Position numbers: made by a program. A DNA stretch of 63,971 nucleotides, filler included, from an uncultured Methanosarcinales archaeon (lineage in GTDB: Archaea > Nanobdellota > Nanobdellia > Woesearchaeales > UBA12501): assembly GCA_964397315.1 (NCBI GenBank). It is 7 parts of 4 records of this genome, joined end to end, with 100 filler letters (N's around TTAATTAATTAA, not from the genome) between each part and the next. Parts side by side here need not be neighbours in the genome. Positions count along the whole stretch, not along the records: positions 1 to 12,366 come from CAYNHV010000001.1; 6 more parts are not named here. The stretch is one strand, 5' to 3'. Below are positions 9,001 through 12,000 of this stretch, piece by piece. Numbering within the stretch: position 1 is the stretch's first letter; every line of letters starts with the position of its first letter.

Positions 9001-12000
9001 TCCTGTCAAACAGAAGGGTCCTTATTATATACTTTACCTCGCTTATCCTTACTGCCCTGAAGAGTATGACAAGTGCTGAATATGCAAGAAGGCCTGCTGC
9101 CAGCACAAGAGGGGCTTCTATGTACCACCTGTTTATCAAAAGAGCCTCTTTAACGAAGTAAAGGACAGCAGTAAAGATTATGCCTGCTATTATGCCTTTC
9201 ACCCAGCCAAGATAGGGCAGCCTTATCCTGTGCTTGTTTATCTCTACAGAGGACATGACAAGCACAAAGAGGTAGCATAGCATTGTGGTGAGTGAAGCCC
9301 CTACAGCGCCGTAAAGGGGTATCAGCAGGAAGTTCATTACAAGGTTTATGGAAGCTGCAATGAGCATGAACCTTGATACAATCCCTGGCTTTTCAAGCGC
9401 GTAAAAGAAGGAATTGTTTATCAGCGTAATGGTGAAGAAAAGATTGGCTATTGCGAGTATGGCCAGCTGGAGGCTGCCTGCCTCGTACGAGCTGCCGAAC
9501 AGCACCCTGAGCACAAGAGGGGAATAAAAGACCATTATCAGGGCAAGGGGTATCACCAGGACAAAGAAGTATTTCTGCACTATCTCATACATCCTCACTG
9601 CATCAGGCATTTTCTTTTTTGCTATCAAAGAGGCTGCCATGGGCGTCAGCACAAAGGCGAATGCCTGAGGGATTATCCTCATCGCCTCTGCTGTGGGGAC
9701 TGCTGTCTGGTAAATGCCCACTTCATGCAGTGTCCTAAAGAAGGAAAGCATCACAGTGTCTGTGTATGTGATTACCCTGCCTCCCACGAGTATGAGCAAC
9801 ACAGAGAAACCATAAGTGAGGGTCCTTTTGAAGAGCTTTCTGCTCCAAGCAGATTTAACACTTGTGAAATCCGGGAACAGTCTTCTCAGGAATATTATGG
9901 TGGAGCCTGCAAAAACAAGGAAAAATGAGATTATGTAGGAGAGTATTGCAGCGGTAACGCTGCTTGTCTTCATAAAGAGAAGAAGGGCGAATATCAGTAT
10001 GAGCGCGTTCTTTATGAAGTTTGACAGGGTGAAGTAGTGGGATCTCTCAAAGCCTATGAAAAGGAACTTGTAGAACCTTTCCATATTGTGGAGTATGAGA
10101 AGCACGGCAAAGAGTATTATGAGCATTGACGCTCCGCTCCTGTGGAAGTAGGCCTTTGAGAGGAAGCCTGAGAACATAACCATCAGTACAGCTATCAGAA
10201 GGGAGAGGCAAGTCTGGAAGACCAGGAGCATTCCTGTGAGGTTCTTTATGTCAGATTTCCTTTTTTTTGCCCTGAACTCTGCTATGAACTTTTGCATGGA
10301 CGAGGAAGTGCCCAGGTCAGCGAAAATCACAATCAGGCTTATCAAGGCTATTCCTGCATAGAAAAGCCCGTAATCATCCGCTCCCAGCTTTCTTGCGAAC
10401 AGTATCCTTATCAGGTAGCCCAGAAGAGATGCCAGCATTGCAAAAAAGAAGACAATCACAGCCTGATTCACTGCTTTGCGGGCGTAGCTCATTTTACTGC
10501 TTTCCATGAAAGAGACTATATAAAGTTTTTGCAGGAAAAAAATGGGATTGTGGGGGAGATAATGAGTTTATGATTATTATTCCTGATACTTCCCAGGGGA
10601 TTGATGAGCTTATAACTCCTGGTACTTCCCAGAGAGGATAATGGGTTTGCGATTATTATTCCTAGCACTTCACTCCCTTGGGAGGCTGATATTTTAGTTT
10701 TTACAGCTCCAGATTCCACCCACCCTTTCTGCAGAACCATCCCTCAGGTTTACACATTCCAAAACAGCACAATTCCCCGCTTCTCTCACCAATAAGCCCA
10801 CCCAATGATATGCTTAAAGTGCTCTGTGGAATTGGTGCGATTAGCATATTGAAGGGGGAGGAGGGATCTATCCATCTGTAACTGCGACTGGGGTGGAGGA
10901 GAACTCAGGAGAAATTCCCCTTTTTACAATGAGCAGTATCTTTAACTCATAAACAGGGCGGCGGCAAACTCTGTAGGAATAGGGATTTAATCACCTATTA
11001 GATCCTCTAAACAGGGCGCCTGCCGCCGATAAGCCTACCCAGCAACATGCTCAGGAGAGCAGGCTGACGAGCTGGGGGTCAGCCATAAAGCCCTCCTTTT
11101 TTATTTCCTCAAGCACAAAGTACTGCTCAGGAGACCTCACCTTGTACTTGTCCAGCCCCTCAACAAACTCATGAACCTCCTTGATGTTCCTGAACAATGC
11201 CTCTATCATGAAATCATAGCCGTTGTTTATCCTGTATACTGAATTGACAAGAGGCTCCTTGAGAAGGTATTCCCTGAATGCCTCCCTCTGGTCCTTTGGG
11301 ACTTTGAGCGCTATCTGCACCCTGACATCATAGCCGAGCTTTGAGAAATCCAGCAGGGCAGTGTGCTTCTGTATGAGGTCCTTCTCATACCTCTTTATCC
11401 TGTCAAATATTGTTGAGACAGGCATTCCTGTCTTTTTGCTCATGCTCGTGAGGTTCATCCTCGCGTTCTTCCTTAGGTGGGACAGTAGCACAAGTTCTTT
11501 TTTTTGTAGCATTTGGAACACCTCCATTTTGTTCGGAATAACAACATTATAGGCAAAAGATTTATATATAACTAACCTCTATAAGTTATATAACTAATAT
11601 AACAGGTTGATATATAAGATGAGAAGAAAGCTCGTGAAACAGGGCAGGAACGCCCTCACAATAACCCTCCCAGCCACCTGGACAAAGAAATTCGGCCTAA
11701 AGGCAGGGGATGAGGTTGAGATTGAGGAGGAAGGAAGGAGTGTGATAATTGGGGGGCAAGGGGAGGGCAGGCCAAGAAAAGCTTCAATAGACTCCACAAA
11801 AATAAGCGAAAGGGTTCTCAGATGGTTTCTGTCAGGCCTTCACAAAGGAGGTTGGGATGAGATAGAAATATTATTTGATAAAAAGGAGACTCTTGATGTA
11901 ATAGATGACCTGATAAAGAATCTCCTGATGGGATTCGCTGTTGTAGAGCAGACAGGCAGCAGATGCCTGCTGAAAAAGGTTTCTATGGACATGGACACAG

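Follow-up and report, generated by a model that had tools for sequence, protein, structure and literature searches.

A modular repeat occupies the spacer between a flippase-type membrane-protein gene and an Lrp/AsnC-type gene in an uncultured Woesearchaeales archaeon (assembly GCA_964397315.1; Table 1). By the window we mean the whole stretch of DNA analysed, 63,971 nt including filler. The left flanking gene has its start and a TATA-like box directly left of the repeat, and this promoter stretch is conserved in a second genome bin; the right flanking gene has its 3' end towards the repeat.

Table 1. Features of the window, in window coordinates, with the evidence for each.
Feature	Position	Strand	Evidence
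Partial copy, contig start	4..230	+	nhmmer 43-230; covariance model 4-218, 105.6 bits
Left flank, polysaccharide-biosynthesis (flippase-type) membrane protein	8981..10507	-	Pfam Polysacc_synt, 93.7 bits
5' array of short diverged units	10553..10703	+	Family coverage climbs from 10553; nhmmer match begins 10594
Core module, 210 nt here	10704..10913	+	Model positions 139-352; covariance model 200.2 bits
Internal imperfect palindrome	10795..10859	+	Fold -19.5 kcal/mol
3' tail unit, type B	10914..10978	+	nhmmer match reaches model position 417 at 10978
Possible degenerate tail-like stretch	10979..11050	.	By eye; outside nhmmer match
Right flank, Lrp/AsnC-type regulator	11051..11527	-	Pfam AsnC_trans_reg, HTH_24
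Another family locus	38318..38753	+	nhmmer 38318-38498, 38676-38753; covariance model 38337-38538, 142.4 bits
Another family locus	42186..42519	+	nhmmer 42186-42519; covariance model 42287-42473

The repeat is built of units, a core and tails of two types, all visible in a 54-copy alignment. In each unit of the 5' array, an AT-rich stretch (TTTATGATTATTA) precedes a copy of the initial ~20 nt of the core (TTCCTGRTACTTCCC...). Three such units occur at this locus (10574-10596, 10610-10632 and 10653-10675), 74-87% alike over 23 nt. An earlier note on this DNA had described tandem 45-nt units; units are indeed present, but their spacing here is 36 and 43 nt, and Tandem Repeats Finder reported no array. 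The core, previously put at ~190 nt, measures 213-217 nt in most of 64 copies, with a pyrimidine-rich 5' third and a G-rich 3' third. Its internal palindrome contains the best conserved block (AGCCCNCCC ... ATATGCT ... AGCATAT ... GGGGG); conservation is concentrated in the interior of the core and not at its ends. At this locus the type-B tail contains GGAATTCCCC and, after a T run, AAACAGGGCGGCGGCAAACTCTGTAGG, a repeat of the 3' end of the core. A further tail-like stretch (AAACAGGGCG..GATAAGCCTACCCAGCAACATGCT) may extend to the stop codon of the next gene, a call of low confidence because the nhmmer match does not cover it.

The same build recurs throughout the family: diverged copies of the core 5' end are stacked 5' of the core, and copies of its 3' end lie 3' of it. 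Upstream of 55 cores, zero to five end-like motifs were counted within 235 nt. Head-to-tail cores occur, and in one tandem pair the second core begins at model position 139. A tail hairpin is found in either orientation, a second palindromic element is nested at one same point in several cores, and many copies are truncated or interrupted. Mean pairwise identity among 55 cores is 0.737 with some blocks above 0.9, in agreement with the low identity (73-82%) and >90% blocks reported earlier, and even the closest pairs reach 91-95% only over ~210-260 nt around the core, the arrays being excluded. Within the window, the partial copy at the contig start has a syntenic counterpart on second-bin contig 5, and the core of the last locus in Table 1 (42287-42457) is reduced to 171 nt by an internal deletion.

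Extent, placement and relatives of the family

Three rounds of nhmmer over the whole genome (E<1e-5) collected 137 pieces on 35 of the 61 contigs, which group into 80 loci and unite to 27,678 nt, or 1.88% of the 1,471,575-nt genome. The family reported earlier (122 pieces, 34 contigs, 1.6%) is real and somewhat larger on recount. A blastn search of the genome with window 10493-11050 gave 98 HSPs on 33 of 61 contigs, with a coverage of 64-68 across window 10713-10812, and so reproduced the earlier picture of 85 places on 31 contigs. Most pieces (115/137) lie outside every ORF of 90 aa or more. The 22 that fall mostly within such ORFs do so in reading frames of 91-150 aa composed of the repeat itself, on either strand.

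With crude ORF calls, the repeat was found in 43 of 95 spacers of at least 500 nt and in 21 of 34 spacers of 700-1000 nt, but in just one of 832 shorter than 350 nt. The statement that most long spacers hold the repeat is too strong. Orientation relative to flanking ORFs is near even (15/14/14/9 over the 52 loci with both flanks), as had been concluded before. Neighbouring loci within contigs share an orientation in 30 of 45 pairs (p=0.036), and all nine loci of contig 1 point the same way; these runs are weak. A bias with replication direction was considered and rejected, the orientation of loci fitting neither GC skew, AT skew nor gene strand.

Outside this genome the family is rare. A covariance model detected it in two of 17 genomes of the taxonomic family; among 151 genomes of the order it matched this genome and gave one 22-bit match in another (G104). 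We did not accept that match as a family member: it spans a gene junction, and we take it as chance because its downstream gene has no relative here. A 23-nt pattern occurred in 27 stretches of genome contigs, six of which fit the family model, all from the second-bin MAG; none of 33 metagenome-contig stretches fit the model (best 17.4 bits), and viral contigs yielded no stretch at all. In our literature search, no account of repeats like these turned up for Woesearchaeota or any other DPANN archaea, and in the excerpted text of a 2026 preprint on Nanobdellota genomes the sole mention is a REP-associated transposase KO.

The second genome bin holds 13-16 pieces, and the family can no longer be called species-specific. 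Eight of its ten loci, in the closest relative sequence at hand, lie at places syntenic with loci here, seven of them in the same orientation, and the number of modules varies at the same locus between the related genomes. All nine second-bin cores nevertheless form one split (support 0.985), and syntenic core pairs come only 17th-40th of 55 when ranked by likeness: two cores from one genome resemble each other more than two from syntenic places do. The median identity of a core to its nearest neighbour is 0.857, which together with the shared sites speaks against a recent burst. In one duplicated pair the cores have diverged more than the flank they share: the cores are identical at 191 of 208 positions, with five gap positions, and the flank is 97.4% alike over 117 nt. 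On other second-bin contigs, all three adjacent syntenic gene pairs enclose repeat-free spacers of 63-356 nt, compared with filled spacers of 441-982 nt here. The element-bearing contigs of that bin differ from the rest in GC and likeness, and 'empty' and 'filled' sites may therefore stem from two different organisms.

Coding, RNA and binding-site readings of the core

The earlier note had read the cores as a burst of an uncalled small-protein gene family (15-aa NSWYFPP repeats and a Cys-rich end), with about half of the copies intact. Stops are absent from frame 0 in 19 of 54 copies, from frame 1 in none and from frame 2 in five; the pN/pS of frame 0 is 0.69, and in the 5' part of the core third positions vary more (column identity by phase 0.777/0.743/0.623, p=0.03). 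The antisense frames are also open, in 12 and 9 of the 54 copies, and minus frame 1 has a pN/pS of 0.65, the remaining frames lying at 0.89-1.11. The codon periodicity, originally given p=0.001, weakens to p=0.06 by permutation over model positions 140-292 (0.789/0.783/0.687), and over positions 226-292, the very block read as the Cys-rich peptide end, it is absent (p=0.52). At the locus between the two flanking genes no plus-strand ORF of at least 30 aa with a start codon covers the core, and ORFs in other copies begin at varied points on both strands, in line with the lack of a conserved start codon that the note itself had conceded. Length changes downstream are not multiples of three, nor are the length differences of the second-bin cores; the 5' part of the core measures 85-88 nt there, where 48 of the 55 cores here have 89 nt. 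Most tellingly, in the second bin frame 0 carries 2-5 stops in all nine cores while the nucleotide blocks are retained, which largely refutes the reading. The window copy translates to 63 aa that match no Pfam family and have no relatives among proteins of 34-111 aa in a large protein collection. We have no evidence for a peptide encoded by the repeat, and uncalled small-protein genes are now a very improbable explanation of the cores.

The conserved core might instead act as RNA. Here the cores would be multi-copy genes for a structured, plus-strand small RNA of ~214 nt. AT-rich boxes in the upstream units would drive their transcription, and gene conversion would keep the copies alike because the RNA serves the cell. 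Blocks within the core are conserved and common to both bins, core length is tightly held, type-B tails have T runs after the core and occupied sites persist between genomes, all of which would suit such genes. An internal hairpin is predicted in most copies, with length changes at its tip, and across 32 copies 85.2% of the cells of the palindrome are paired, a share that drops to 36-61% once the partners are slid. Covariation, however, does not rise above that of shuffled alignments (double changes in 3 of 18 pairs against 2.5 expected, with 235 of 500 shuffles as high), and variant subfamilies break three consecutive pairs. RNAalifold finds compensatory change in 1 of 43 pairs, as scarce as before (1/50), and the best Rfam 15 matches, at 13.6-17.3 bits, come nowhere near the gathering scores of 37-85; here too the earlier result holds. 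The predicted stability is modest and alike on both strands: against dinucleotide shuffles, the palindrome of the window copy has z scores of -1.70 (plus) and -0.82 (minus), the whole core of that copy -0.84 and +0.69, and hairpins of 20 copies for each strand a mean of -1.35 (plus) versus -1.19 (minus). Moreover, no conserved promoter precedes the cores that lack units (tandem second cores and the C16/C48 copies), and many copies are broken. On this evidence we regard small-RNA genes as unlikely. The greater stability of the plus-strand hairpin in 58 of 61 copies was rejected as evidence for RNA; since the z scores are similar on the two strands, the lower plus-strand energy reflects composition. 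The internal loop was also considered, by eye, as a k-turn or C/D box, but the key G falls in a variable column and the idea was abandoned.

Blocks conserved in the interior are seen more often in functional RNAs or binding sites than in MITEs, and the repeat could also be a domesticated array of DNA sites for a putative chromatin, replication or regulatory protein. The reiterated end-motifs, TCCWGG..CCCNCCC and GGGNGGNGG..CWGGA, would be such sites, and spacer copies would be kept because they organise the chromosome or insulate genes. Consistent with this, the short motifs recur in direct order on one flank and inverted on the opposite one, the primary sequence is conserved and covariation is lacking, the repeat occurs in spacers of each of the four gene arrangements, and occupied sites persist. 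Nevertheless, the repeat is lacking in 15 of the 16 other genomes of its taxonomic family and in 149 of 150 genomes sampled from the order, the exception being a marginal 22-bit match, and a general cellular role is therefore not indicated. The repeat is also missing from three syntenic spacers, and its copies vary in module number and can be truncated or nested. We consider a site array improbable, more so than small-RNA genes.

Proposed movement at the DNA level and comparison with known elements

Between the two ends of the core, 13 interrupted positions can pair; over 50 copies these pairs are retained in 58-100%, some of them in only 58-78%. A repeat search of the window copy found no terminal inverted repeat at its ends, and by eye the flanks of copies share no common short duplication. 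Neither a target-site duplication nor an exact boundary can be defined, because the flanking intergenic DNA is unalignable between genomes. Transposase genes in this genome include a single IS200-type Y1 gene (contig 20, 6920-7330; one also occurs in the second bin), one ISL3 gene and one DDE_Tnp_1 gene; with NCBIfam, the Y1 protein scores 86.8 bits for IS200 (cut-off 55) and 52.1 bits for REP_Tyr_transpos (cut-off 80). A comparison at E<1e-3 showed nothing in common between the repeat and the regions around these three genes; beside the Y1 gene lie other hairpins, and we found no full-length insertion sequence with the repeat's ends in the genome.

The repeat departs from several specific classes. 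An IS200/IS605-derived palindrome-associated element would share the hairpin ends of the resident element, but the Y1 gene flanks do not resemble the repeat. REP/BIME units with a RAYT (REPIN) are 20-40-nt palindromes, often in inverted pairs, but the core is 213-217 nt long and the Y1 gene is neither REP-associated nor repeat-flanked. The genome has no TnpB domain, reverse transcriptase or integrase-type (rve) transposase, which removed a TnpB guide-RNA remnant, a retroelement and an rve-type mover, respectively. The MITE-like alternative raised in the earlier note fits the repeat better than the peptide reading did, with the reservation that the inverted repeats are imperfect and that no partner transposase was identified.

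Taken together, these observations make it probable that the repeat is a non-coding, modular, interspersed mosaic of the BOX/ERIC/MITE kind, moved or homogenised at the DNA level. The core would be moved or copied as DNA through a trans-acting transposase, through gene conversion among copies, or through both, and new cores would preferentially land in, or convert, sites already occupied. Such reuse of occupied sites would explain the tandem cores, the arrays of end units and the long life of occupied sites. IS200-type HUH transposases act on single-stranded hairpin DNA, and the lone enzyme of this type may be offered as a candidate mover, although its link to the repeat is a weak guess. A more far-reaching reading takes the ~70 cores as working genes for, or replication intermediates of, a single structured plus-strand molecule (~214 nt) whose copies at dispersed sites are kept alike by gene conversion. 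The molecule could be a small RNA of the cell or the ssDNA substrate of the lone IS200-type HUH transposase. We think this unlikely; if true, it would be an archaeal long-unit counterpart, in a streamlined DPANN genome, of the vertically inherited REPIN-RAYT replicators.

Composite interspersed repeats have long been known in bacteria. ERIC/IRU elements are 127-bp imperfect palindromes of enterobacteria, and BIMEs are mosaics of palindromic units. In BOX elements of Streptococcus pneumoniae and S. suis, boxA and boxC surround a variable tandem array of boxB, according to the excerpted text of PMC3049150, which also names ERIC/IRU and BIMEs and defines prokaryotic MITEs. The repeat resembles BOX in having dozens to more than 100 copies in the spacers of a small genome and predicted stem-loops, and perhaps in a composite structure with pairable end modules and a short module in variable tandem number that differs at the same locus between related genomes. 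Here, however, the short units flank the core and are copies of its own ends, the core is ~214 nt, and the host is archaeal; no sequence relationship is expected. With ERIC and BIMEs the repeat has in common imperfect palindromes in spacers, a conserved primary sequence, no known coding capacity and presence in some, not all, syntenic spacers of relatives; it is, however, longer and more modular than ERIC and, unlike BIMEs, is not built of 20-40-nt palindromic units. For the cores of the repeat, homogenisation within a genome is shown.

Prokaryotic MITEs, archaeal ones among them (surveys reportedly in PMC11602168 and PMC10969869), are small, non-coding, multi-copy, intergenic and highly base-paired when folded, and the repeat has these properties, its pieces being mostly intergenic. 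Some syntenic sites are empty, as for MITEs (three of three gene pairs, in a bin that may hold two organisms), whereas the imperfect terminal inverted repeats and the want of a related full-length insertion sequence set it apart. REPIN-RAYT systems, as presented in the excerpted texts of 10.1101/2021.07.10.451892 and 10.1101/2022.05.22.493013, resemble it as lineage-restricted populations that persist vertically at syntenic places (here eight of ten second-bin loci) in a genome with a single-copy Y1 (HUH) transposase gene. In our case, however, the Y1 protein scores as IS200 and its gene is not flanked by the repeat, whose unit is 214 nt and not a short REP pair.

DPANN archaea are usually described as streamlined. 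In this 1.47-Mb DPANN genome, one non-coding family makes up nearly 2% of the sequence and occupies almost half of the long spacers. It pairs two properties that are uncommonly found together: occupied sites persist between genomes, and sequences are homogenised within each. This combination makes the family a tractable subject for work on gene conversion, or on transposition that reuses sites, in an archaeon that has not been cultured.

The family also has practical consequences. It gives rise to spurious small ORFs on both strands and can mislead gene callers and binning, and it breaks the assembly, 24 of the 122 contig ends terminating inside the repeat. Contigs from three DNA runs of one study, compared over window 1-12366, included none that joins across an empty site, and no population variant without the element was seen there. 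Unitigs of these runs stop inside the repeat, and in one run the summed contig depth reaches 79 over 10739-11151 against about 8.4 alongside.

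Extent, placement and build of the repeat

The repeat at window positions 10593-10973 lies within a 543-nt spacer. With window 10493-11050 as query, blastn returned 98 HSPs on 33 of the 61 contigs of this uncultured Woesearchaeales genome (G000), with a coverage of 64-68 at 10713-10812, and three rounds of nhmmer (E<1e-5) raised the number of pieces from 91 through 127 to 137, on 35 contigs. The union of these pieces covers 27,678 nt, or 1.88% of the genome. They group into 80 loci, 24 of which reach a contig end, and at least one core of at least 200 nt is present in 44 of the 56 internal loci. 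Given these matches, the repeat family described in the earlier note is real, and it is somewhat larger than was stated there.

Spacers were defined by crude ORF calls (ORFs of at least 90 aa). The repeat occurs in one of 832 spacers shorter than 350 nt, in 8/82 of 350-500 nt and in 43/95 of at least 500 nt, and it occupies all four arrangements of neighbouring genes (15/14/14/9; n=52 loci). Neighbouring loci on a contig share their orientation in 30 of 45 pairs (p=0.036), including all nine loci of contig 1; this orientation follows neither GC skew, AT skew nor gene strand.

The anatomy was read from 54 long copies aligned to the family model, and its parts are listed below together with the neighbouring genes and two transposase genes. 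Pyrimidines make up 66% of the core's 5' third, and G makes up 42% of the 3' third; the core ends are imperfectly complementary, with 13 interrupted pairs. The three upstream units of the window locus, spaced by 36 and 43 nt, are 74-87% alike, too divergent for Tandem Repeats Finder, which reported no array there. Head-to-tail cores also occur, the second beginning at model position 139. In the closest pairs of copies, an identity of 91-95% is confined to ~210-260 nt around the core and excludes the flanking arrays.

Features of the repeat, its neighbours at the window locus and two transposase genes (model positions are coordinates in the nhmmer family profile)
Feature	Location	Strand	Size or number	Details
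Polysaccharide-biosynthesis membrane-protein gene (left neighbour)	window 8981-10507	minus		start faces the spacer
Lrp/AsnC regulator gene (right neighbour)	window 11051-11527	minus		3' end faces the spacer
Core	model 139-352; window 10704-10913	plus	213-217 nt in most of 64 cores	
Inner palindrome	window 10795-10859			better conserved, enclosed by the core ends; AGCCCNCCC..ATATGCT..AGCATRT..GGGGG
Upstream short units			0-5 per copy	AT-rich stretch, then a repeat of the core's first ~20 nt
Downstream tail units			two types	core's 3'-end motif GGGNGGNGG..CWGGA recurs in both
IS200-type Y1 (HUH) transposase gene, single	G000 contig 20, 6920-7330		136 aa	NCBIfam IS200, 86.8 bits
ISL3-family transposase gene	contig 20 5105-7330 region, directly upstream of Y1		404 aa	NCBIfam transpos_ISL3, 238.9 bits (part scanned)

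By eye, the 3' flanks of one of the two kinds of tail unit (type A) carry a short hairpin in either orientation, GGGATTGAGCGCAGTGAAATCCC or GGAATTTCGCTGCGCTTAATCCC depending on the copy, for example downstream of contig 1 127787-128191 and of contig 11 26319-26701. This suggests a small palindrome that was inverted, or inserted either way round.

Elsewhere in the window, the Lrp/AsnC gene (11084-11501) has paralogues on contigs 8 and 18 with a DNA identity of ~71%. Six pairs of 44-N stretches, with 12 bases between the members of each pair, lie at 12367-12466, 17965-18064, 27054-27153, 50320-50419, 51500-51599 and 57831-57930; an ORF at 11607-12422 is cut by one masked stretch, and the window from 57931 onward is contig 49.

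Coding potential and structure of the core

The earlier note had read the core as a hidden small-protein family. At the window locus, no plus-strand ORF of at least 30 aa with a start codon runs over the core, and the 91-150-aa ORFs of other copies begin at varying places and occur on either strand. Within model positions 140-295, the frame proposed for the peptide (plus frame 0) is free of stops in 19 of 54 copies, and two antisense frames are open in 12 and 9 of the 54. Calculated from 33 gap-free copies, the pN/pS ratios of plus frame 0 and minus frame 1 are 0.69 and 0.65. The codon periodicity put forward at that time is confined to the 5' part (p=0.03): column identities for the three codon phases are 0.789/0.783/0.687 overall (p=0.06), the block taken for a Cys-rich end shows none of it (p=0.52), and the G-rich 3' part has a differing, GGN-type periodicity. 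Neither a Pfam match nor, among 34-111-aa proteins, a relative was found for the translated window copy. The decisive evidence comes from a second genome bin, G007, in which the cores retain the conserved nucleotide blocks, yet all nine carry 2-5 stops in frame 0; their 5' part measures 85-88 nt, whereas 48 of the 55 cores analysed here have 89 nt. The core thus does not look like a peptide gene.

A structured RNA was also considered. An Rfam search of the repeat gave nothing near a gathering score. RNAalifold placed 43 pairs in 50 cores, 89.8% of them standard, compared with 47-53% when slid; compensatory change was found in one of the 43, and three consecutive pairs are broken by variant subfamilies. 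In the inner palindrome, 85.2% of cells are paired against 36-61% when slid, in an alignment not fitted to structure, and its covariation is not above that of shuffles. Its stability relative to dinucleotide shuffles is modest and nearly equal on both strands (mean z -1.35 plus and -1.19 minus; 20 copies per strand), so that composition accounts for the plus strand folding at lower energy in 58 of 61 copies. Folding the window copy's entire core gives unexceptional values (z -0.84 and +0.69). Length changes are located at the palindrome tip. We read this element as an imperfect palindrome conserved at the DNA level; a possible role as an RNA or single strand is unsupported.

Distribution and history in two genomes

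Across 41 related genomes searched by BLAST and 17 genomes of the taxonomic family searched with a covariance model, the repeat is confined to G000 (76 model hits) and G007 (13). Among 151 sampled genomes of the order, the covariance model found it in G000 only, apart from one marginal 22-bit match in a genome of another family, which is probably due to chance because its downstream gene has no relative in G000. This match (contig 111 of that genome, 99-168; 70 nt) resembles the inner palindrome and takes in the stop codon of a thioredoxin-like gene as well as the start of a gene for a membrane protein. Searching with a 23-nt pattern of the best block recovered true members solely from one MAG, the second bin, in six stretches; the 33 stretches from metagenomes included none, and viral contigs gave no match.

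The comparison took in all 88 contigs of G007; its proteins have a median identity of 60% to those of G000 (n=622). Eight of its ten repeat loci are syntenic with G000 loci, seven of them in the same orientation, and one is the partner of the window locus. Nevertheless, position leaves no signal in the cores: the nine G007 cores form one split (support 0.985), and syntenic core pairs come only 17th to 40th among 55 when ranked by likeness. Mean core identity is 0.737 within G000, 0.755 within G007 and 0.675 between them, the median nearest-neighbour identity in G000 being 0.857. A duplicated pair on contigs 16 and 48 differs more in the core than in the shared flank. Since the loci are syntenic but the cores group by genome, the family predates the split of the two lineages; occupied sites persist, and within each genome the sequences become homogenised or replaced.

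At three adjacent syntenic gene pairs on ordinary G007 contigs, the spacers measure 63-356 nt and lack the repeat, whereas those in G000 measure 441-982 nt and contain it. The repeat-bearing G007 contigs are short, with a GC content of 0.41-0.46 (others ~0.48) and a protein identity to G000 of 69-82% (others ~57%); a closer relative and a more distant one may have been binned together, these contigs stemming from the former. If so, the empty and filled sites belong to two organisms, which would fit a gain after the deeper split. The bin itself looks like a mixture: one set of short contigs (GC 0.40-0.46; among them 3, 5, 19, 31, 34, 51 and 79) is 77-82% identical to G000 where alignable, the bulk has a GC content of ~0.48 and 70-75% identity, and all but one of the repeat-bearing contigs fall in the low-GC set. 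Separately, the short motif CCGACAACCACTCATTT, present several times to either side of the repeat locus at G000 contig 9 ~7900-8560, is retained in the syntenic G007 spacer (contig 34 ~9000-9930).

Comparison with known repeats and candidate movers

In build and habit, the closest counterparts are the bacterial composite interspersed repeats, among them BOX, ERIC, BIME and MITEs (PMC3049150); BOX is described there as end modules with a tandem short module. In persistence, the closest are REPIN-RAYT populations (10.1101/2021.07.10.451892 and 10.1101/2022.05.22.493013). The repeat does not pass cleanly the tests that define these classes: its terminal repeats are not clean, a target duplication could not be defined, no partner element was found, and it flanks no RAYT. 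We found no description of such repeats in the literature on Woesearchaeota or DPANN; in the available text of a 2026 preprint on Nanobdellota, mention is limited to a REP-associated transposase KO. Accordingly, the family was filed as a non-coding mosaic repeat of an archaeon rather than a hidden peptide family.

Besides the Y1 and ISL3 genes, G000 has one DDE_Tnp_1 gene, and no TnpB, reverse transcriptase or rve domains were found in it; the repeat has no end sequences in common with any of the three transposase loci (0/3). The Y1 protein falls below the cut-off for a REP-associated transposase, and G007 likewise has one Y1 gene. As a weak guess, the HUH enzyme is a candidate mover of the repeat, because of the hairpin-rich ends, head-to-tail cores and runs of orientation.

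Several smaller elements accompany these loci. Directly after the Y1 stop (contig 20 7335-7354) lies a 20-nt perfect hairpin, CCCCAACCTTTAGGTTGGGG, with seven sites at up to two mismatches against none for a reversed control; the other six are on contig 3 (twice) and contigs 33, 55, 5 and 1, one of them inside the contig 5 repeat locus. At contig 1 65729-65860 (~130 nt), both ends of the ISL3 element are joined, as in a deletion derivative. Several cores also enclose, at the same point near model position 297, a further small palindromic element with three perfect hairpins (TTT loops) between the boundaries ATAATCCCGAC...GTCTGGGATTA. Repeat copies that hold it include those at contig 9 15042-15813, contig 33 4947-5411, contig 1 145838-146233 and contig 2 69829-70442, and loose ends of it lie at window 166; a piece beside position 74502 of contig 2 matches G007 contig 51 at 96% identity, far above the genome-wide likeness.
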